Made by a program: the position numbers and the translations under genes | Notes under the pieces: model-generated | What the model was told of the DNA's origin: nothing | Database searches by the model: none | What the model saw: the letters and a program-made list of their open reading frames with translations, nothing else | Shown: positions 3,356 to 15,058 of the stretch, piece after piece | Layout of the letters: every line of letters begins with the position of its first letter | Position numbering within the stretch: the stretch's first letter is position 1 | Source: a virus | Reading direction: 5' to 3' (one strand) | Virus genome (UHGV): UHGV-1333077 | Length of the DNA stretch: 15,236 nt

Positions 3356-6300
3356 TTAACCTGTGAATGAACCAGATCCGTGTGATACTATGACAGTAGG
3401 CGAATAAATGGACGCGCCCCTGTTATTTTGAGCGGACACTTTAATACGTACTGTTACGTTTGGACCTGTTATAACAGCAGAATGCATAATAAGTCTCTCC
3501 ACGTCTTGCACAGATGAACCACTCTCATTGCCGTTAATATTGATTAGTCCTGCACCATTACCTTTAACGTTTGCTATAACACAGACGTGTCTTGCGTGCC
3601 CAGAACTGGATGAATCCGTATAAGTTATTACCTTTTCTAAAAGGCCGTCACTAGACCGACTAACGTCAGTTCCGGTGTGCATATTTGCAATGTCCCCGAT
3701 AAAACTTTGGGCTTCCACAGTCCCTTTGAATTTACCGCTTGTTGCTTGTATCTCACCAGTAAATCTACCGCCACTAGCATATACTACACCTCTGACGGTC
3801 ACATTGTTGAATTCAGCATCTCCAGCTTTATTCAACTTCCAACCAGCAGAACCAGCTGCATAGTTGTTGGACTGGATATAGTTACCGATTTTTGCGTTCT
3901 CAATGGTGCCGTCCTGGATGAAGCTGGCCCGGATGAATGTCTGTCCATTCTGGATCACAAACGGCAAAGCCACGCTATTTCCGGCTGCCGTGGTGACGGC
4001 GAAGCGATCAGCCAGGAAGATAACCTGCGACTGCATGCCGGATGGCGTATTCTCCACGCCGATACCCATCCCCGCGGCGTAATACTGCCCGTTGCTGGAG
4101 ACACCAACTTTGATGTTGTACATCGCGCTGAGGTCGCCGTTTACGTTCGCTATAGCCTGAGCGTTGGTTGTGATGGCTGAGGTATGCCCGTTCACCGTCG
4201 CCGTGATGCTGTTTACCTGCGTGGCCATAGCCTGCTGGTAATCGGAGAACGTCTGGTTCAGGCTGTTGATGGATGCCTTGTTNNNNNNNNNNCGTCTGCA
4301 GGCTCAGCAGCGAGCGCGCCGTTGCCTCCCTGTCGTTGACAATCACCTCATCAATACGGTCCAGATTCGCGCTGTTGCCGGCGACCGATGCAGAAAGGGT
4401 TTTACGCGTGGCCACCTGAGCGAGGTTGGCCTGGATTATCGCAATTGCAGAGTTCTTCACCCCGCCCGTCATGCCGTCCATCGACACAGAAATCTCGTCG
4501 ATCTTCACTTCGGCCTGAGCCAGCCCGTCAGCGTTCTCCAGGATGTCTTTCGCCTGCTGCTCGAGTTCGTCGGCATGGTTTTTAATTTCGTCAGCCATGC
4601 CAGCAATTTTTTCGTTGCTGTCCACCGCGTTCTCGATCAGATCTTTGAACGTATCGGAGCCTTTCATGTCCTCCAGGATTGCATCGGTGATATCGGAAAC
4701 ATCGATGCTGGCCTGTCCTCGCACCCATTCTGTGTACCCTGATTCGTTGCCGCTGCGGTCCACCAGCTGAGCGCGGTACCAGAAAATCTGCCCAGCCTTG
4801 AGGCCCATCTGCTGATACTTGCGCTGCGGATAGGGTACGTCTGCCAGCAGCATCGCATCGTCTTCCGTCCCAGTCAGACTGTACTGAATTTCCGTCTTCA
4901 GCGTGTCGTCGGTGTTCGCCGGGAATCCCCAGCTCAGCTCGATACCGAATACCACATTATCGGAAGCGATGAAGCCAACCGGCTTCGGTGGATTGCCCAC
5001 TTTACCCGTCAGCGTTTTCTCTTCTGAATAGCCCCATCCGGATGAAATTTCTGCGGCATTGATTGCGCGCACCCGCACCAGGTAGCGCCCGGCATAAATC
5101 CCCGGGACGTCGAATGACGTGGTGGAGGTGCGCGGCACGTTAACCCAGTTCCCGTCGTTGCGGCGCCATTGCGCTTCATAGGCGATAGCGTTCTGCGCCT
5201 GGTCCCAGCTAACGCGCATCGTTTCGACGCTGATATTTTGCTGCACCACGGAAAACGAGCTGATCACGATGTTCGCAGGCGGCGACTGGTTACCAGGCGG
5301 GATCACGCTCACCGGCCGCTGGTCAATGATGGCTCCGGTATCGATGCGGGCATATTTATCCGGGTCGTGCCATGCGCCGGTGATTGAGAAAGTGCCATCA
5401 CCGTTGTCGGAGACGCTGACAACACGATACTGCTGCGCGTAAAGCTCGTCAGATTCAACCACCCAAACAGCTTCGGCCTGTGGCGTCTCACTGTATGCCG
5501 TGGTGACTGTGACTGATTCCCCGTTCACGGCCTGAATGGTCCTGCTCTGCGACGCTCCGGAGGGAAGGTTGAGAATAAGGCGATCACCTGGTGCTGCATC
5601 AGCTACGCGGTCAAGTTTGATAACGCGACCGTTAACGGCGCTGATGCGGCCGCCCATAACCTTTCCGGAAAGCAGCTCGTCTGCCACGGCGATGATGTAG
5701 CCAGGCTGCGGAATGTTTCCGTCCAGCCCGACATCAAACGAAACAACGCGATCCTTGTTGTTGGTGAGAATGCCCCAGCGCCCCTTTCGGTTCGCTTCTG
5801 ACTGCCTGGTGCAGCCGATGGCTGTCATTTCCAGCTGATTGAAGCCGTATCGCGCTACCAGCGCCTGCTCAAATACCGGCTCCATCGCGTCGGCATAAGC
5901 GTTACCCGGGTCTGACCATGAAACCAGCGCTGTGGTGTAGCGGGTTTTCGTGGTGCTGCTTGAATAGGTGAAGCGACCGCCAACAACGTTGGCGCGCGTG
6001 TAGCTGTAATCAACATCTCGGGGCATATCGGCCAGAGCAACGATCTGATCGCCTCCCCAGTACGTCATGCCACGGAATATGGCCGCAAAATCACGCAGGA
6101 CTGTATAAGCGTCGTTTCGGTCCTGGATGTACACGTTGCAGGTATAACGTGGTTCGGTACCGTTGCCCCCTTTGCCGTCTGGTACCATCTGATCACAATA
6201 CTGGGCAACCTGATAAAGCGTCCATTTATCAATATTCGCAGCGGTCAAACGGTGCCCGAGGCCGAACCGGGCAGAAACAACCAGATCGTAAAAAATCCAC

Positions 6301-7157
6301 GCAGGGTTATCCGTCCATGCCCACTTAAACGCACCGGTCCATGTACCGCTATAAGTGCGGGTTTCAGGGTCGTAGGTATCTGGAACGCGGATAACACGGC
6401 CGCGGGGCTCGCAGGAGATCTGCGGGATAGAGCCGTTAAACTGACTTGAATCGAATTCGATGTAGAGTAGCGCTGTGTTTGGATATCGTAACTTGGCGTC
6501 AATCACCTCGGTGAAGCTCTGCAGCGTCATCGTGTCGCCGATCTTCGCGCTGTTGGCATCAGAGGTAATCTTACGCAGACGTATTGTCCAGGTGCTGCCA
6601 GCTTGCGGTAAATCGATACGGTGGCTGCGCTCATAACCAGACGTCGTTTTGCCGGTCACGCTGGTATTGAGTACCGTCTGNNNNNNNNNNCATGTGCCGC
6701 CGTCCGTCTGCAGGTCAATCGCATAATTGACCGAGTAACCCACCAGATCTCCGTCGTCTTCCTGTTTGAAAAGCGAGGGCCATTTCAGACGCAGACGAAC
6801 TGCTGAAAGCTGCGTATTGGTAAACGTGCGCGTCCAGGCTGTAGCGCTTGATACCTCAGTTCCCACGCTGATTTCGTTTTCGGTACCGGGAATACCCTGA
6901 ATATATTTTTGAGCCTGCGTCCCCGCGCGAAACTCCCACGTCACGCCGCTGAAGTTTTGGGAACCGTCGGCATTCTCCAGCGCCGTTCCGTCCAGGTAGA
7001 TATCTTTGCCGGTTAGCTGCCCTGCGAACTCCCCTTCGCCAAGCGCAACGAGGATTTTTGCCTTCGCTACAGATTGCAGATCATCAGGCTGTTCGGTAGG
7101 AGTTCGTGAACTGGATTTGCCGCCTTTGCGCCCCTTTAATACTTTCTCTGTAGCCAT
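3356..7157 (-). CDS. J: Tail tip / host-specificity protein J (central tail fibre)
   Basis: N-terminal 1049 aa (track ORF 4008..7157) resemble lambda J. The N gap at 4283-4292 shifts the apparent frame; the true C-terminal about 290 aa continue as the track ORF 3356..4228. The gap at 6681-6690 is also inside the gene. Confidence 0.9.
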
Positions 7158-7168
7158 ATCGCGTCCAT

Positions 7169-7192
7169 AAAAAAAGCCACCCGAAGGCGGCT
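7169..7192 (-). terminator. Intrinsic terminator on the minus strand ending 11 nt upstream of the J start codon
   Basis: Minus-sense AGCCGCC-TTCG-GGTGGCT followed by TTTTTTT (7-bp stem with one G-U pair, UUCG tetraloop, U7 tract). Confidence 0.5.
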
Positions 7193-7323
7193 ACTGTTTA
7201 AATATCAGGCTGTTGGTAACAGGAATCCCTGGTTAATGTGTAAGCTCAGCCCGCCAGTGGTAGGCCTCTGGCGTTAACTGACCGAGGGATGGCTGAAGTA
7301 CCCGGGTAAAATGGAGTAATAAG

Positions 7324-7539
7324 ATGATCGAAGAAAAGTTCGTGGATTTTAGATTTACTCTTGACGAAAATATTCCTAGAGAAATCGCTTTAGAAATTGT
7401 GGCTCTAAGACAAGTTACAATGGTATTAACAGCAGCATTGCCAGTAGATACAAGGCAACAAGTTATTGAAATCCTATCAAAGACAAACTCACCACAAATT
7501 CAAGACATCGTCAAAAATATGAAGCTTATTGACGCCTAA
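7324..7539 (+). CDS. Hypothetical small acidic protein (71 aa) in the AT-rich I-J insertion
   Basis: ATG at 7324 with GGAG 7 nt upstream. AT-rich codon composition unlike the flanking tail genes. A plus-strand hairpin terminator candidate follows at 7562-7588. Its 3' end overlaps the minus-strand 49-aa ORF. Confidence 0.4.
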   Translation: MIEEKFVDFRFTLDENIPREIALEIVALRQVTMVLTAALPVDTRQQVIEILSKTNSPQIQDIVKNMKLIDA

Positions 7540-7638
7540 TGTCATTGAAGCATCGTACTCTACGGTCTCATGCGGGACCGTTTCATTAACTTCAGATGTT
7601 TCATTTTCAGTTTTTTCTACTCGTGACTCAAAAGACAT
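7489..7638 (-). CDS. Hypothetical small acidic protein (49 aa), directly downstream of gene I; below the size cutoff of the supplied ORF track
   Basis: Manual translation: MSFESRVEKTENETSEVNETVPHETVEYDASMTLGVNKLHIFDDVLNLW. Strong SD AAGGAG (complement of 7645-7650) with 6-nt spacer, beginning 8 nt after the I stop codon. Overlaps the 3' end of the + ORF 7324..7539, so at most one of the two may be real. Confidence 0.3.
   Translation of the reverse strand: MSFESRVEKTENETSEVNETVPHETVEYDASMTLGVNKLHIFDDVLNLW
7562..7588 (+). terminator. Candidate plus-strand hairpin terminator after ORF 7324..7539
   Basis: acggtctc-atgc-gggaccgt stem (8 bp including one G-U pair) followed by tttcatt. The T tract is imperfect. 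Confidence 0.3.
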
Positions 7639-7658
7639 ACACATCTCCTTAACTTAGC

Positions 7659-8257
7659 TTACTGCTGATCTTCGACATATATCCCGGCAGAAATAATCGC
7701 TCCGCCGATTCGACGCTTACCATAAAGCAGAGGCACTGGGTAGCCTTGCGCTGCAGTGTTGGTTACCCCGCCAAACGCATACGATGNNNNNNNNNNNNNN
7801 NNNNNNNNNNNNNNNNNNNNNNNNNNNNNNNNNNNNNNNNNNNNNATAACATCTGAACTACCCCCCCCAGCGTTATGGACGCACCAGCAGCAAACATCAT
7901 ATTGCTGGCAGCTATACTCAGACCTGGCATCCAGATCGATGCAATCACTAATACTGCGCCCAGGATAGTTTGAATCAAACCGGCTTTTTTACTCCCGATG
8001 ATTACCGGAACAATGCGAATAACCTCGCCGGTAATCGGGAAGCCAAGGTCATCCACACCGATGTTTTTTTTACCCTTAAACACGGAGTATGTGAGCCCAC
8101 GGCGTTGGCTGGAAATCATAAACTGCTCAAATCCAGGAATGGTTTTTGCGAGTGCAACGCCTGCTTCGCTTACGCGGGATATCAGACGGTAGTGAACTTT
8201 GCCAAACGTTTTTCCAAGAACACTGCCTAATTCAATTCGACTCATGACCTCTTGCAT
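7659..8257 (-). CDS. I: Tail assembly protein I
   Basis: N-terminal part resembles lambda I (...IVPVIIGSKKAGLIQTILGAVLVIASIWM...GGVVQML). A 59-N gap (7787-7845) interrupts it. Beyond the gap the lambda-like C-terminus AQGYPVPLLYGKRRIGGAIISAGIYVEDQQ is in another apparent frame and ends at TAA 7659-7661. The track end at 7763 is a gap artefact. Confidence 0.85.
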
Positions 8258-8272
8258 ATAATCCCCCCACGT

Positions 8273-8296
8273 AAAAAAAACCGCCGAAGCGGTTTA
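8273..8296 (-). terminator. Intrinsic terminator for the K-I lipoprotein gene, upstream of I
   Basis: Minus-sense AAACCGC-TTCG-GCGGTTT followed by TTTTTTTT. Located 24-47 nt downstream of the lipoprotein stop. Confidence 0.6.
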
Positions 8297-8319
8297 ATTT
8301 GGTTGATTTATTTAGGTGT

Positions 8320-8715
8320 TTATTTATTAAAATGTTTCTTTTCAATGCTCATTGCTTGATTAAAGAAATTTGTAGCATTAATTACCGCCCTTTCACAATC
8401 CTTCTGCCCATAATGTCGATGGCATTGGAATTCAGCATTTATTGCCGTATCGCCGGACTGTTTAACCTTAGATGCCCGTCCTGCAAGTTGCCTTGTATCA
8501 ATAGGTGGGAATGTTGTTATAAATGTATCGTTAGCTGATTCTACTCTCATTTTTGTTGCAAACTCCAAATGCTGAGGAACCTTCGACCAAAGATAACTAC
8601 ATTCAGCCTCTGATGAACATGTGACAGGCTTAGTATCTAATACCGGCATTGGCCTATTATCAGCACATCCAGCGGTGGCAAGCACCACAAGACCAGAGAA
8701 CAATATTTTTTTCAC
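8320..8715 (-). CDS. Predicted lipoprotein (131 aa), accessory 'moron' gene inserted between tail genes K and I
   Basis: MKKILFSGLVVLATAGC: signal peptide with lipobox-like TAGC. GTG start with GGGAAG-type SD. Four further Cys in the mature part. AT-rich relative to flanking tail genes. Own terminator downstream. Not a lambda gene. Confidence 0.65.
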   Translation of the reverse strand: MKKILFSGLVVLATAGCADNRPMPVLDTKPVTCSSEAECSYLWSKVPQHLEFATKMRVESANDTFITTFPPIDTRQLAGRASKVKQSGDTAINAEFQCHRHYGQKDCERAVINATNFFNQAMSIEKKHFNK

Positions 8716-9514: not shown

Positions 9515-10279
9515 TCAACTCCTGATAAGAGATGTACCGGGGAAACCACCGAACGGCAGCTCGTTGCTGTATCCGTGCCGGAGCTTGCAGGCCGTCAGCG
9601 TGCCGTTGCATACATCCAGCGAGGGATCGTCAACCGGATTATTGTTTTTGTCGAAATAGCGCGTTCCGGCATAGTCGCAGCCGTCGCCGGTACGATATTT
9701 ATTCCGGATGCACCAGGTACACAGGGAATGAAGCTGTCGCGTCGGGATCATTTGCCCCTGCAGGTCCATCGGGCTGGATAGTGTGAACTCAACAACTTCA
9801 TTGGTTTCACTGCTCTTTGCATCGATGTAGAAAACCTTCAGCTTCTCCTGGGTCGGATCGGCTGTCGGATTGCCTCCGGTGAAGTTTCTCGCATCAAGAT
9901 ACTTACCAAGGGTGTCATGTATCGTCACCTTCGCCTGCAGCATATCGTCGTAAGCCAGGCAAAGCGCGGTGATCGAACTGTCGAGGTTAGCAACCGAAAG
10001 TTTTGGCTGGGCACTACTTCCCGAGGTTGAAGCTTCNNNNNNNNNNATCCCATCAATCTGGCATGGCCACGCTTTATACTCCTCACCCTGCCACCAGATA
10101 GATTTTGCTGGCAGTTTATTTTCATCACCGCCAGCAGCCTCAATCTCTTCCGGGGTATGCGCGATGTTATGTGCGTGGAAGCGGAGTACATCTGACATAC
10201 CGAACGCTGTGCCATCGACAGAAAAAAGCCGGACTTCATTGCCCGGCTCGAGTTTTTGATAATCAGCATTAAGACTCAT
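9515..10279 (-). CDS. L: Minor tail protein L
   Basis: 254 aa with the Cys-rich C-terminal region typical of gpL. ATGA overlap with the M stop. Contains the N gap at 10037-10046. Confidence 0.9.
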   Translation of the reverse strand: MSLNADYQKLEPGNEVRLFSVDGTAFGMSDVLRFHAHNIAHTPEEIEAAGGDENKLPAKSIWWQGEEYKAWPCQIDGXXXXEASTSGSSAQPKLSVANLDSSITALCLAYDDMLQAKVTIHDTLGKYLDARNFTGGNPTADPTQEKLKVFYIDAKSSETNEVVEFTLSSPMDLQGQMIPTRQLHSLCTWCIRNKYRTGDGCDYAGTRYFDKNNNPVDDPSLDVCNGTLTACKLRHGYSNELPFGGFPGTSLIRS

Positions 10280-10628: not shown

Positions 10629-13145
10629 TTACCTGCGATTGGTCGCATTCCAGATAAGCCCACCGGGCTGGATTGCCCTGGCGATACCCTCGTTGACAGA
10701 TTTGTTAATCACCTGCTGATACGCCTTACCCAGCCTGTCTCCGTCGTTTTGCTGCTGTGCGTTACCGGAAGCATTCTCGACCGTCACCGGCGCGTACACG
10801 CTCACCCCGAAAGGTGCTGCAGCGGGACCTGTACCACCGCCCCCGACATACCCTCCCGTGGCATAGCCTTTCATCATCCGGTAAAGATTGCCGACGCCGA
10901 TCCGGCTGGTAGCCTCTTTGGTGAAAACAAATTCGCCACGGTGAACGACACCTGCGGGTTCATATTTCCCGCCTGAACCGGTATAACCGCCACCTGCAAA
11001 TCCCAGCGCGGTTGATGCTGAATCCACTAAGCCTACCATCGCCTGTTTCAGCAGGATCTGTGTCAGCATGGAGAGCGTGGAGCGGGTGAAGTCAGCCCAG
11101 TCAGCCTTTCCGCGCGTCAGCATGTCAGCCATATTTTGCCCGATGCCATCAAACGCACTGGTGGCAGCCGACTTCATCTGGCCATAAGCATCTGAAGCAG
11201 AATCAACATAATCTGCCCATGCGGATTTGGCTCCGGACTGCCAGTCGTCCCGCAGCTTATCCTGCTCGGCGTAATACGCCTGCAGCGCCTGCAGCTCATT
11301 CTGATAACCAGCATCGTTCTCCGAACCACCACCATTTTTCCAGCCCTGAAGAAGCTGGGCCTCTTCATTGCGACGTTGTGCTGCACGACTGCTCATACCA
11401 GCACTTTCCGCAAGGGCTCGGGTTTTCTCGCCGATCTGCGTGACGTATTTTTGGGACGTATCCTGCAGGCGATTAAGCCGCTCCTGCGCCACTATCTGAT
11501 CGCCGAGCTTCGCATTCAGCTCCGCACGGGAAAGCACCTCACTTTTACTGGCCAGCAGGGATTTTTCCTCAGCAGAAAGCGTTCGGGTCTTCGCGGCCTC
11601 TTCCAGAACCGTAAAGCGGGACTGCTGACGCCACAGCTCCTGACGCTGCTGGCTGATGGTGTCATTGATGCTCTTATGCTCCTGCAGGGTGCGCAGCTGT
11701 GTCTGTAGCTCCAGCGTCTGGGCACTGGCCGTATCGGTGGCACGGGCACCTGCGGGGGTTCTGATTGCCGGGGTCTTCTTCGGCTTTTTAAGGGTGTCTT
11801 CGTACTCTTTTTTCGCGGCAGCCAGGTTGATGTTGTAGTCAGCCTGGAGGATCCGCCCCTCTTTCAGCGCCTTGTTGAGCTCGCTCTGCCTGGCCGTGTA
11901 TTTCTCCAGTGCCGTCTGCGTTTTGGCATAGTTTGCCTGTGCCTGCGCAGCATACTTCTGGCGATCCGATTCCGCAGCCGCTTCGCGCGATGCATTCTCT
12001 TCGTTCGCCCTGGCAATTCCCGCCTGCTGCTGCGCCATATCCAGCGCAAGCCTGGCCGTTTCGCGGTCATTCCAGAATCGGGCGCGAGCCTCATCATTGA
12101 CATATCGGTCACCTTTACGCAGGTTCCAGATTTCATCAGCTTTTTTGAACGCGGCTTCGGCTTTTGCCACCATCTCCTGCGCGGTGTCAGGTCGGCCAAT
12201 ATCGAGGGCTGCATCCCACATCGACTTGAAGGCGCGCTTCAGGGAGTCCGCTGAAGACTCTATCGTCCCCATATTGTCGCGGATGGCTTTGGTCTGATCG
12301 TTGAATCCGGCTGTAGCCGCCTCGTTAGCCGCCTGCAGTGCGCCAGCCTCATCACCGGCACGCTGCAGCTGCGCCACATGGGCAATCTGTTCTGCGGTAA
12401 CGTTATGGAACTGCTGGGCCATCGCGATCAGGCCCGATGTCGGGTCAGTTGCGAGCTTGCCGTAGGCTGCAGCGACTTTCTCCACCGGCACGCCGGAGGC
12501 ATCAGTAAACCGCGCCACCGCCTGGCTCATTTCATCAAAGCGCGAGCCAGTACGCACACCTGCATTGATAAGCTCGGTCAGGGCTTCACTGGTCTGGTTG
12601 AACGTTAGCCCCGCTGCCTGTCCGTTCCGCGCCAGTGCCAGCATGCGGTCAGCTGTCAGTCCGGCTGTGTTCCCCGACAGTACCAGCGTTTTGTTGAAAT
12701 CAGACAGAGTGGAAGAGCCCTGGTACCAGGCATAGAACAACGCGCCCGTTGCAACGGACAATGCACCAATGCCGACCATCAACGGGGAAATCGTCCCCAG
12801 CAACGCCCGGAATGTCGGAATGATCCCGCCAAAGGAGTCCTTAACCTGACCGCCCTGCTGAAGCAGAATCAGCCAGGGGTTCTGCCCACCCGCCAGCTGC
12901 GTGGCCACGTCAGTAAACTGCGCCGGGAGCATACGCATCGCTGCGTTATACTGACCCACTGAAATACCGGCCTTACGCGCGGCGTTCTCCTGGCGGCTGA
13001 AGGACTGCTGGATACGTAACGCTTCATCGTTTGCCGTATTGCCGGTCTGTTTTAATTCTTTTTTGACGTAGCTGAGCTGCTCGTTGAATTTTGTCGAGTT
13101 AACGTCAAGGTTAACGACCAGATCACCGACTGCCGTCTGGGCCAT
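10629..13145 (-). CDS. H: Tail tape measure protein H
   Basis: 838 aa. Long stretches match recalled lambda H nearly exactly (GISVGQYNAAMRMLPAQFTDVATQLAGGQNPWLILLQQGGQVKDSFGG...; C-terminal GGKYEPAGVVHRGEFVFTKEATSRIGVGNLYRMMKGYATGGYVG). Confidence 0.95.
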   Translation of the reverse strand: MAQTAVGDLVVNLDVNSTKFNEQLSYVKKELKQTGNTANDEALRIQQSFSRQENAARKAGISVGQYNAAMRMLPAQFTDVATQLAGGQNPWLILLQQGGQVKDSFGGIIPTFRALLGTISPLMVGIGALSVATGALFYAWYQGSSTLSDFNKTLVLSGNTAGLTADRMLALARNGQAAGLTFNQTSEALTELINAGVRTGSRFDEMSQAVARFTDASGVPVEKVAAAYGKLATDPTSGLIAMAQQFHNVTAEQIAHVAQLQRAGDEAGALQAANEAATAGFNDQTKAIRDNMGTIESSADSLKRAFKSMWDAALDIGRPDTAQEMVAKAEAAFKKADEIWNLRKGDRYVNDEARARFWNDRETARLALDMAQQQAGIARANEENASREAAAESDRQKYAAQAQANYAKTQTALEKYTARQSELNKALKEGRILQADYNINLAAAKKEYEDTLKKPKKTPAIRTPAGARATDTASAQTLELQTQLRTLQEHKSINDTISQQRQELWRQQSRFTVLEEAAKTRTLSAEEKSLLASKSEVLSRAELNAKLGDQIVAQERLNRLQDTSQKYVTQIGEKTRALAESAGMSSRAAQRRNEEAQLLQGWKNGGGSENDAGYQNELQALQAYYAEQDKLRDDWQSGAKSAWADYVDSASDAYGQMKSAATSAFDGIGQNMADMLTRGKADWADFTRSTLSMLTQILLKQAMVGLVDSASTALGFAGGGYTGSGGKYEPAGVVHRGEFVFTKEATSRIGVGNLYRMMKGYATGGYVGGGGTGPAAAPFGVSVYAPVTVENASGNAQQQNDGDRLGKAYQQVINKSVNEGIARAIQPGGLIWNATNRR

Positions 13146-13451: not shown

Positions 13452-13878
13452 TCAGCTCACTGGCGAGGACTTTTCCGCAGTAACGGGTTCAGCGGGATCA
13501 TTACGTTCTTCACCGGATGAAGTCGGTTCTTCAATGACAGGCGCAATCATCCCGGACAGGAGTTTCACCTTATATTCCGCTTCGGCAACCAGTTCGGTCG
13601 GCCATGACTGCATGACCTCATCCTGAATCTTTGCCACTTCCGCCGCCGCATTTTCTCCCTGGGAGCCTTTCAGTTCGTGGCCGTGCCAGAGTGACATCGC
13701 CACGAGGAACGCCCCACTTTTTANNNNNNNNNNNNNNNNNNGCCGCCTGAAAATCGCCAGCTTCAACTGCCTCAAGTTGTTTCAGGTATTCGAGGTATTC
13801 AATACGCTGCAGCGCCGACAGCTGGAACAATGTGACGCTGCTGCCGTTACTTTCAAGCAGCTCGCTCTTTAGAAACAT
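13452..13878 (-). CDS. G: Tail assembly chaperone G
   Basis: MFLKSELLESNGSSVTLFQLSALQRIEYLEYL... and ...GAFLVAMSLWHGHE...DPAEPVTAEKSSPVS parallel lambda G (MFLKTESFEHNGVTVTLSELSALQRIEHL...; ...GAFLVAMSLWHNH...AGPAEPVSAGKCSTVS, recalled). The N gap at 13724-13741 splits it into two apparent ORFs in the track. Confidence 0.85.
13470..13476 (-). promoter_or_regulatory. Putative -1 programmed ribosomal frameshift heptamer GGAAAAG near the 3' end of G
   Basis: Minus-sense ...ACT GCG GAA AAG TCC... The -1 frame from here reads GGA AAA GTC ... straight into T. Lambda uses GGGAAAG at the equivalent place (established knowledge); this heptamer differs at position 3. Confidence 0.5.
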
Positions 13879-13914: not shown

Positions 13915-14652
13915 TCAGGAAACAGTGACTTTGCAGATCGCCACAAAGTTACCGTCATTGCTCATTACGATGATCTCGACGGTGCCTGCCGCCACGCCGG
14001 TAACAGTCAGGGTATTGCCGCTGACGGTGACCGTTGCTTTTGACGGATCAGAACTGGCTACGCGGAAAGACTTATCTGAAGCACTTGCTGGCAGGACAGA
14101 AACAACCAGTTGCACAGTTTCACCGACCGCAACAGCTGCAGTGGATTTATCCAGGCTGATCCCCGTAACGGCAATCGGCGCGGTACCACTGTCTTCGGCC
14201 AGCGATGGTTTGCCATTGTTGGTGATTTTTGCCGTGCGGGTCATGACCTCTTTGGACGTAATGGTCTTGCCGAGACTGCTCACCCAGCCCTTAAACACAT
14301 CGACAACACCATTCGGATATTTGATTTTATACCCCTTCACGGTGCCTTCATCGAACCAGTTCACCAGGTCCTGCTGACCGGAATCCTCCGGCATCCATGC
14401 GAGCGTCAGGTTTGTTTCACCGGCTGATTTCTGCCCCTGCATCGTTGATGTCCAGTCGGCATTCTCATCATCGATGTAGGTGTCATCTTCCGATTCAGCT
14501 GTCAGTTCTCCGGGCTGCAGGTCTTTAATCTTTGCCAGGCGCAGCCAGTCAACGTCTGAAAGCGGATTGGCGTATGGATCACCAGTTCCGGTGTAAACCC
14601 AGAGGGTGGTACCAGCACCTTTTGTTGGTGCCAGCGGGTTTGGTGTGGCCAT
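13915..14652 (-). CDS. V: Major tail protein V (with C-terminal Ig-like domain)
   Basis: 245 aa, closely parallel to recalled lambda V ([49 protein letters not shown]...GQKSAG.T..TLAWMP...; C-terminal DKSFR...KATV.VSG.T.TV.GVAAG). Confidence 0.95.
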
Positions 14653-14659
14653 AGGGTCC

Positions 14660-15058
14660 TCACATGTCGTAAGTAATGGAATATTTCAGGTCGGCAGAAC
14701 TCCACAGCGCCATATCGTCATCGCGCTGGTAGTCATAGCCCTGCTGAACCATTGTGGTGATAAGAGATTCAAGCCCCGGAACCTCTGCGAGAACCGGATA
14801 CACTCTCGTCTCCATCCAGTCATCCAGATCAGAATCAGGTACCTGAGCCTCAAGAAAGACTTCGATATGCAGAATGGCCTGCCAGCTATCGGCGTCCAGT
14901 TCTTCCCCTGTGTATTCCGCATCTGTCAGGTAGACGGCAACAGCGGGAAAATCACCCTCTTCGAGCACTGCAGGTCTGCCGTCAAAATAAATGACATCAG
15001 TACCAATCGCGCTTTCCAGCGCGTCAATAATCACCTTGCGAATATCGCTGTGTTTCAT
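14660..15058 (-). CDS. U: Tail terminator protein U
   Basis: 132 aa. [15 protein letters not shown]...[54 protein letters not shown]...GYDY.RDDD..LWSSADL.Y.ITY.M matches lambda U almost throughout (recalled). Confidence 0.95.

Follow-up and report, generated by a model that had tools for sequence, protein, structure and literature searches.

A putative convergent moron cassette between tail genes I and J and the conserved module that precedes its reverse gene

What fills the gap between the tail genes I and J of the virus genome UHGV-1333077? The window, by which we mean the whole stretch of 15,236 nucleotides analysed here, carries a lambda-like tail module with the late operon on its minus strand, and I and J are separated by 501 bp (positions 7158-7658). 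The original prediction had described this gap of about 500 bp as an AT-rich insertion relative to phages in which I abuts J, with terminators on both strands and two small acidic open reading frames (ORFs) overlapping antisense by 51 nt. These features were all found at the positions given for them. The GC content is 0.36-0.39 at 7300-7700 and 0.51-0.56 in J, the two ORFs share positions 7489-7539, and the hairpins lie at 7192-7175 on the minus strand, followed by seven T residues, and at 7562-7581 on the plus strand, with a weak U tract. In phage HK446, I and J are 52 bp apart. Comparison with its relatives identifies the 501 bp segment as a predicted moron cassette at the 'moron / reverse moron' site (gp22/gp23) of HK97 and HK022. 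Its main feature, missed in the original prediction, is a conserved promoter/leader module at 7175-7323. What the sequences show is the architecture of the cassette, the conservation of the module, covarying hairpins in its leader and purifying selection on the gene of 71 amino acids (aa). The two ORFs and their signals are listed here, the forward direction being that of the late operon:

7324..7539, plus strand: reverse gene, 71 aa, Srb-like family (phrog_6806), three-helix protein
7313..7316, plus strand: GGAG Shine-Dalgarno (SD) sequence of the 71-aa gene, at a position relative to the ATG that is fixed across leaders
7562..7587, plus strand: reverse-gene terminator, hairpin ACGGUCUC/GGGACCGU followed by UUCAUU, embedded in the forward ORF
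7489..7638, minus strand: forward small ORF, 49 aa, MSFESRVEKTENE..., ATG at 7638 and stop codon at 7491-7489
7645..7650, minus strand: AAGGAG SD sequence of the forward ORF, 6 nt before the ATG at 7638 and 8 nt after the stop codon of I

At the same site HK97 (NC_002167) has Gp22 ('moron product'), Gp23 ('reverse moron product') and three putative terminators, and HK022 (NC_002166) has gp22 and gp23 ('srb protein'). Both phages have the layout of the window, in which the forward ORF follows I directly and converges on a reverse ORF that overlaps it and carries a terminator of its own; J is preceded by a terminator acting in the late direction. The approximately 110 bp adjoining J are 96% identical to HK97 and 86% identical to HK022. 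HK97 matches the window cassette region at two flanks only, and homology to HK97 gp22/gp23 was rejected as BLASTP gave no alignment; the same slot thus holds different cargo. HK022 gp23 and the window 71-aa protein fall into the same PHROG and align without gaps. The window differs in that its forward ORF is much shorter (49 aa compared with 120 aa) and lacks the canonical AGCCGAAAGGCAGGAGA start region present in HK97, and in that its leader has diverged in the second half. The closest relative is mEp506 (PV340542), whose cassette is 99.5% identical (97.1% over the whole region by megablast) and whose proteins XSB41127.1 and XSB41126.1 represent both ORFs at the same coordinates relative to I and J. 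The cassette was also present in 4 of 5426 complete E. coli genomes. Most HK/mEp phages are without it, their match being confined to the end of I. Among the traits of a moron (a concept of Juhala et al. 2000, as cited in PMC3594210), an insertion separating genes that neighbour each other in related phages, a deviant base composition and terminators of its own were seen here. At a classic moron site and with a near-identical copy already deposited (mEp506), the insertion as such is ordinary. No paper on mEp506, the 'reverse moron' or the function of HK022 srb was found in the searchable literature.

The relationships of the 71-aa ORF mark it as a genuine gene. Its length alone is weak evidence, as plus-strand ORFs of at least 71 aa arose in 4.8% of dinucleotide shuffles (n=2000). 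Relatives with 63-65% identity occupy the same I-J site in Kosakonia-type prophages, beside a convergent 59-aa ORF. Between these two lineages nonsynonymous divergence (pN) was 0.24 and synonymous divergence (pS) 0.80, and within the Kosakonia-type clade the values were 0.012 and 0.064; the gene is under strong purifying selection. The Prokaryotic Genome Annotation Pipeline (PGAP) calls the 71-aa ORF, and not the 49-aa ORF, in complete E. coli genomes. An exhaustive hidden Markov model search of 1.84 billion representatives returned 10 proteins only, with conserved columns down to 33% identity, and a first scan of genome contigs with the 71-aa protein gave no match. The protein matched phrog_6806 (E = 1.6e-6), which also matched HK022 gp23 'Srb' (3.9e-8) and SPN3UB gp29 (3e-30). 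In an alignment of 20 Srb-like members the core was gap-free and E24, R44 and L51 were conserved. These matches assign the 71-aa protein to the family of HK022 gp23 'Srb'. An AlphaFold model has three helices (predicted local distance difference test score, pLDDT, 76). The protein has a net charge of -3, an isoelectric point (pI) of 4.7 and a grand average of hydropathy (GRAVY) of 0.14, and the acidity that had been ascribed to both ORFs is thus mild here, while it stands for the 49-aa ORF (net -8). The plus-strand hairpin at 7562-7581 has 8 bp (region z = -2.56), and the reverse-gene terminator is stronger in relatives, with U6CU in the Kosakonia type and U5 in HK97.

Other identities for the 71-aa protein were rejected. 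In mEp506 it is labelled 'DUF2594 containing' without Pfam support; neither the protein nor 10 relatives matched DUF2594/YecF (PF10769) at E <= 1, YecF itself scores 128.6 bits on PF10769, and hhalign comparison of the 71-aa family with YecF gave weak probabilities of 0.3% in one alignment (A4) and 17.6% over 29 columns in another (A6). A match to DC-SIGNR at 3.7e-12 was spurious, as no stretch passes by itself, and presumably reflects the repetitive neck region of that lectin. A type I toxin-antitoxin system does not fit a protein that is not hydrophobic (its GRAVY is given above), and no antisense promoter was seen.

The module in front of the reverse gene consists of the following elements:

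7168..7192, minus strand: late-direction intrinsic terminator AGCCGCCTTCGGGTGGCT followed by seven T residues (hairpin 7192-7175), 10 nt before the start of J
7193..7233, plus strand: conserved upstream block with TACTG at 7193-7197 and an inverted repeat, TCAGG 7205-7209 ... CCTGG 7228-7232, with a variable core
7234..7239, plus strand: putative -10 element TAATGT (invariant TAnnnT), preceded by the invariant CCTGG at 7228-7232
7246..7323, plus strand: predicted 5' leader RNA, with TCAGCC at its putative start (7246-7251)
7252-7257 / 7268-7273, plus strand: P2 hairpin
7285-7296, plus strand: conserved block GAGGGATGGCTGA, the P3 / GGCUGA region, degenerate in the window copy

In the aligned copies conservation extends from the terminator hairpin to the SD sequence of the reverse gene. 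Helix 1 of the late-direction terminator covaries, and the terminator is annotated in HK97 and ES18. Among 118 unique leaders (alignment A5) the invariant positions read CCTGG-n-TA-nnn-T, the signature of a -10 hexamer, and this holds too in copies found with a pattern lacking that motif. TAnnnT lies at a fixed distance from the conserved start of the leader, with no recognisable -35 element and no match in a consensus scan. TCAGCC begins about 7 nt 3' of the -10 element and is the presumed transcript start. In P2, one pair was UG in 87 sequences, UA in 14 and CG in 13, and another was UA in 105, CG in 5 and UG in 4; in P3 the counts were AU 45, GU 36, GC 13 and CG 3. All five measures of covariation for P2 and P3 beat 500 of 500 shuffles and every slid control, and the dominant U.G pair in P2 fits a plus-strand RNA only. 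Both sides of the P1 pairing (UCAGCC/GGCUGA) are invariant, so that P1 has no covariation evidence; as it crosses P3, it could form only in a sterically tight pseudoknot or in a different fold of the RNA. The window copy matches the module through P2 and the GGATGGCTGA block.

The upstream block at 7193-7233 resembles a site for integration host factor (IHF; TATCAGGnTGTTG). By eye, this block (A5 columns 23-63) reads TACTG-N9-TCAGGrTGTTr ... CCTGG and matches the IHF consensus WATCAR-N4-TTR; its CCTGG is also a Dcm site. Three GGA motifs in the leader (P2 loop, AGGGAUG and SD), also noted by eye, recall CsrA targets. A LexA box in TACTG-N9-CAGG was rejected on inspection, the spacing being one base short of CTG-N10-CAG, and no sigma-54, sigma-E or sigma-32 motif was seen by eye to be conserved across leaders.

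A search with positions 7158-7270 alone found 23 phage records with four types of site: between I and J (HK97, HK022), between M and L (ES18), before the tape-measure gene (SPN3UB) and after the lysis genes (HK633, mEp213, mEp043). In each record examined, the segment lay directly 5' of a small gene opposing the late operon. Each pattern scanned for the module matched at least 120 viral contigs. The module is also genuinely present in 9 species-representative genomes, from Enterobacter, Citrobacter, Pseudocitrobacter and Dryocola, and few complete E. coli genomes have it. Two of the 11 genome-contig matches (L150 and L151, metagenome-assembled genomes labelled Mangrovimonas and Flavihumibacter) were rejected as chance, having the search pattern only. 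A first sample yielded 59 distinct proteins at a fixed distance 3' of the leader, and across at least 144 unique cassettes the cargo comprised 24 unrelated families of small proteins. The largest is the Srb-like family, which includes the window protein; others include DUF1883 and a retropepsin-like aspartyl protease. In the 144 cassettes some reverse and forward families always co-occur, and the two largest families combine with many forward ORFs. Since the same leader stands before at least 24 unrelated families, and does so in several positions of the late operon, we regard the cassette as an expression slot that accessory genes have in common. Recurrences were recorded as loci L014-L020 and L021-L221 (for example L016:1275-1444 and L020:1505-1674). 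Some prophages have two module copies about 7-15 kb apart, a window-type copy between I and J and an HK633-type copy elsewhere, as in NZ_CP147053.1 (3412013-3412503 and 3427442-3427572) and IMGVR_UViG_2558860447_000004 (L077, L080).

The forward ORF was placed in the late operon by the original prediction, and its AAGGAG does begin 8 nt past the stop codon of I. An alternative upstream ATG at 7644 (51 aa) leaves no spacing to the SD sequence. Its final 17 codons lie opposite the 3' end of the 71-aa gene, in antisense. This overlap had led to the judgement that at most one of the two ORFs is real, which the comparison did not support: the 71-aa ORF is clearly a gene, a convergent overlapping pair recurs in at least 134 of 144 related cassettes, and both genes are annotated in GenBank for HK97, HK022, mEp213, SPN3UB and mEp506, the last of which has the 49-aa ORF itself. 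Across the 144 cassettes, the convergent ORF (at least 40 aa, just after the upstream late gene, in those 134 or more) usually has 14-78 nt in common with the 3' end of the reverse gene. About 40% of forward ORFs start with MTLEQRVEALEK, with a conserved AGCCGAAAGGCGGGAGACAGTT just upstream; past this start they are unrelated and range from 49 to 119 aa, the prefix being fused to DUF1327, the HK97-gp22 family and coiled coils, among others. Forward ORFs with the conserved ribosome-binding region and MTLEQRVEALEK include L017:1147-1305(-), L020:1837-2049(-) and L007:4202-4381(-). The prefix codons for R, E, L and A vary synonymously among family members, which argues that the MTLEQRVEALEK peptide is translated. 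It may be a recombination joint combined with a translation-start region, or a functional tag. The window MSFESRVEKTENE... and the Kosakonia-type MTLEQRVETLEMK... have a common start with four synonymous differences. The window ORF has lost the heptad leucines (L3 to F, L10 to T) and the canonical upstream sequence. By its start it belongs, as a putative degenerate member, with the convergent ORFs of late operons that begin with MTLEQRVEALEK, and it is probably, on weak evidence, translated from the late mRNA.

How would such a cassette work? We favour, with moderate confidence, a two-gene convergent moron cassette of the HK97/HK022 gp22-gp23 class within the Q-dependent late tail operon between I and J. 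The reverse unit would be backward-pointing and self-contained. The module at 7175-7323 would contribute a terminator, a weak promoter with TAATGT at 7234-7239 and a transcript start around 7246-7248, and a leader, some 75 nt long, that includes a 5' hairpin and an SD sequence; it would drive the three-helix 71-aa protein, and transcription would end at the unit's own hairpin at 7562-7581. The orientation of the reverse unit against the late operon and the signals of its own make expression from the repressed prophage most likely. By stopping at its own hairpin, reverse transcription would leave gene I protected from antisense transcription, and the minus-strand terminator would stop late-direction transcripts that are not antiterminated before they reach J. 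During lytic growth, polymerase modified by Q would read through everything, the forward ORF would be translated and the two transcription directions would collide; the converging antiterminated transcription would damp the reverse unit. Any translation of the 49-aa ORF (7638-7489) would be from the late mRNA, immediately behind I. As to its role, we suggest tentatively, and with less than an even chance by a wide gap, that a small protein made in the lysogen acts against other phages, by exclusion or interference, or modulates the host, and that the late ORF serves as its partner or antidote.

A parallel is the 'noncontiguous operon' TaiEcA/AtiEcA of phi80 (He et al. 2024, PMC11364771). Experiments showed there that the lysogen expresses an antisense defence gene, that its expression falls when Q is expressed, and that the small late gene beside it is the antidote. 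Systems of the Tai/Ati type block tail assembly of other phages, and their antidote prevents autoimmunity. As in the window, the gene lies antisense inside the Q-dependent late operon and adjoins and overlaps a small late gene. However, TaiEcA has 204 aa and is unrelated (hhalign probability 0.2%), the 49-aa ORF has no homology to AtiEcA, and the phi80 pair is divergent, with overlapping 5' ends, whereas the genes of the window cassette are convergent. The phi80 pair has a defence phenotype; the window cassette is known here from sequence alone. Given the lack of homology and the opposite arrangement, we regard the likeness as analogy and not as membership. Phi80 was not among the records matching the first 113 nt of the leader. 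In phi80 (L223, 44365-46080) another reverse ORF is annotated at 45229-45528; it overlaps the forward ORF at 45352-46080, immediately ahead of cos.

The internal proteins of phage T4 share a capsid-targeting sequence: their N-terminal peptide is short and conserved, and the C-terminal parts behind it are unrelated and change fast. The forward ORFs resemble them in sequence layout, with the MTLEQRVEALEK prefix placed ahead of DUF1327, the HK97-gp22 family and coiled coils.

Together with the differences from phi80, several results weigh against the two-gene cassette as we propose it. Minus-strand ORFs of at least 49 aa arose in 21% of dinucleotide shuffles (n=2000), which puts the length of the 49-aa ORF within chance. 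The original prediction had named conservation and codon substitution as a check; the 71-aa gene came through it conserved and under purifying selection, but the coding signal of the 49-aa ORF is weak (pN 0.33 and pS 0.60 between clades, 0.08 and 0.21 within a clade). Its length and charge are not conserved (net -8 compared with -1 to -2 in relatives), and gene callers seldom call it. Neither protein matched Pfam, PADLOC matched neither ORF nor any of eight other cargo proteins, profile searches of PDB sequences gave weak or spurious matches only, and the best PDB fold for the model of the 71-aa protein had E = 2. The U tract of the plus-strand terminator (UUCAUU) is weak in the window copy, P3 is degenerate there and the leader departs from the consensus in its second half. 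A generic sigma-70 scan found no promoter and no -35 element is recognisable, for which reason we infer the -10 assignment from the conserved hexamer. Alternatively, only the 71-aa gene may be functional, the 49-aa ORF being a decaying remnant or chance frame, left over from the conserved translation-start region of an older forward cargo gene and yielding no functional protein. We give this possibility substantial weight, somewhat short of an even chance, and it is partly compatible with the two-gene account. Besides the chance length, it would explain the 22-residue indel and 35% identity between the 49-aa ORF and the Kosakonia-type 59-aa ORF, the placing of the conserved C-terminal LGVN of the forward ORF in or beside the overlap with the other gene, the loss of the family's heptad leucines noted above, the absence of the canonical upstream AGCCGAAAGGCGGGAGA, and the omission of the ORF by PGAP, with a single small protein cluster to represent it. 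Against it stand the AAGGAG at ideal spacing directly after I, the start M-x-x-E-x-RVE that is kept despite four synonymous third-position changes relative to the Kosakonia type, and the recurrence of a convergent forward ORF in nearly all cassettes (the 134 or more already cited).

The conserved segment could also be read on the other strand. Positions 7170-7270 would then act in the late direction as an IsrK-style small RNA or 3'-end structure (hairpin, A/U-rich linker, terminator), and would contain no promoter or leader for the reverse gene. Rfam 15 held no family at its gathering score; the best matches were on the minus strand, isrD at 18 bits in the window and isrK at 15.6 bits in a canonical copy of the module. 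In both, the order of elements is hairpin, AUAUUCAG..., terminator and U run, and a frequent CAGGG-to-CAGGA variant gives G.U on the minus strand and an A.C mismatch on the plus strand. Yet these scores are terminator-driven and far under the thresholds (37 for isrD, 50 for isrK), no promoter was seen on the minus strand, and conservation runs about 80 nt further, to the SD sequence and ATG of the reverse gene at a fixed distance. Read on the late strand, the U.G pairs that P2 has in 87 of 118 sequences would turn into A.C mismatches, and an A-to-G variant at column 34 fits the plus strand only. We find this reading improbable, and the two roles are not mutually exclusive. Less probable still is that one of the small proteins is an anti-defence factor made in infection (a DNA mimic, an anti-restriction or an anti-CRISPR protein), as the original prediction had suggested. 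The forward ORF is predicted to be expressed late and is acidic (net -8), and the diversity of cargo behind one conserved module resembles the turnover of arms-race genes. Acidity is not conserved, however, the closest relatives of the 49-aa ORF having the weak charges given above, and the 71-aa protein has only -3; the 71-aa gene, opposing the late operon, is poorly placed for expression in infection, and products of a late tail operon come too late to shield incoming DNA. The libraries searched (PADLOC, Pfam and PDB), none of which is an anti-defence catalogue, gave no match.

With the two-gene cassette as the preferred account, what may be new is the portable terminator-promoter-leader module and the conserved start of forward ORFs that together frame variable cargo. 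One module and one forward start region flank variable small-protein cargo at several late-operon positions of lambdoid phages of Enterobacteriaceae. No description of the portable module or of the forward start was found in Rfam or the searchable literature, and the original papers on HK97/HK022 and ES18 may mention a shared upstream sequence. If the reverse genes are exclusion or host-modulating factors of lysogens and the forward genes their late partners, the leader would be a sequence handle for dozens of candidate pairs, and also a defined RNA/promoter element with which to study genes kept on in lysogeny and turned down in lytic growth. A more speculative proposal, which we consider doubtful, is that the cassette family is a modular exchange of small-protein pairs, a lysogen effector with a late partner or antidote carrying a 12-residue N-terminal tag (MTLEQRVEALEK), the effector leader being structured and possibly regulated through its 5' hairpin, GGA-rich P3 and IHF-like site. 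If true, this would point to a large untapped reservoir of Tai/Ati-like prophage pairs for defence and self-immunity, with proteins of 50-120 aa.

The cassette lies within the following tail genes of the window:

14660-15058, minus strand: U
13915-14652, minus strand: V
minus strand, between V and I: genes G and T, H (10629-13145), and M, L and K of the lambda-like tail module
7659..8257, minus strand: tail assembly gene I, 3' part, stop codon TAA at 7661-7659, interrupted by an N run (7787-7845)
4008..7157, minus strand: tail tip gene J, start codon ATG at 7157, reading frame broken further on by N runs
minus strand, after J: a tail fibre gene and Tfa

Gene I is annotated as 'tail tip assembly protein I' in mEp506 and E. 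coli EC23HZZ201. N runs interrupt several genes (611-620, 1139-1148, 2535-2544, 2796-2807, 4283-4292, 6681-6690, 7787-7845, 10037-10046 and 13724-13741), and that at 7787-7845 divides gene I. For J there is a pair of ORFs, 4008-7157 and 3356-4228, the second with the Phage_Tail_Tip domain, probably because masked N runs shift the frame. A second extra unit lies between K and I in AT-rich DNA (8278-8715, GC 0.35-0.42). It has a minus-strand ORF of 131 aa (8320-8715; phrog_16082, no Pfam match). After this ORF, positions 8278-8295 form a perfect palindromic hairpin, to which a T run is added in the late direction. The 131-aa gene is also present in E. coli EC23HZZ201, and mEp506 and HK446 have other small genes at that position.

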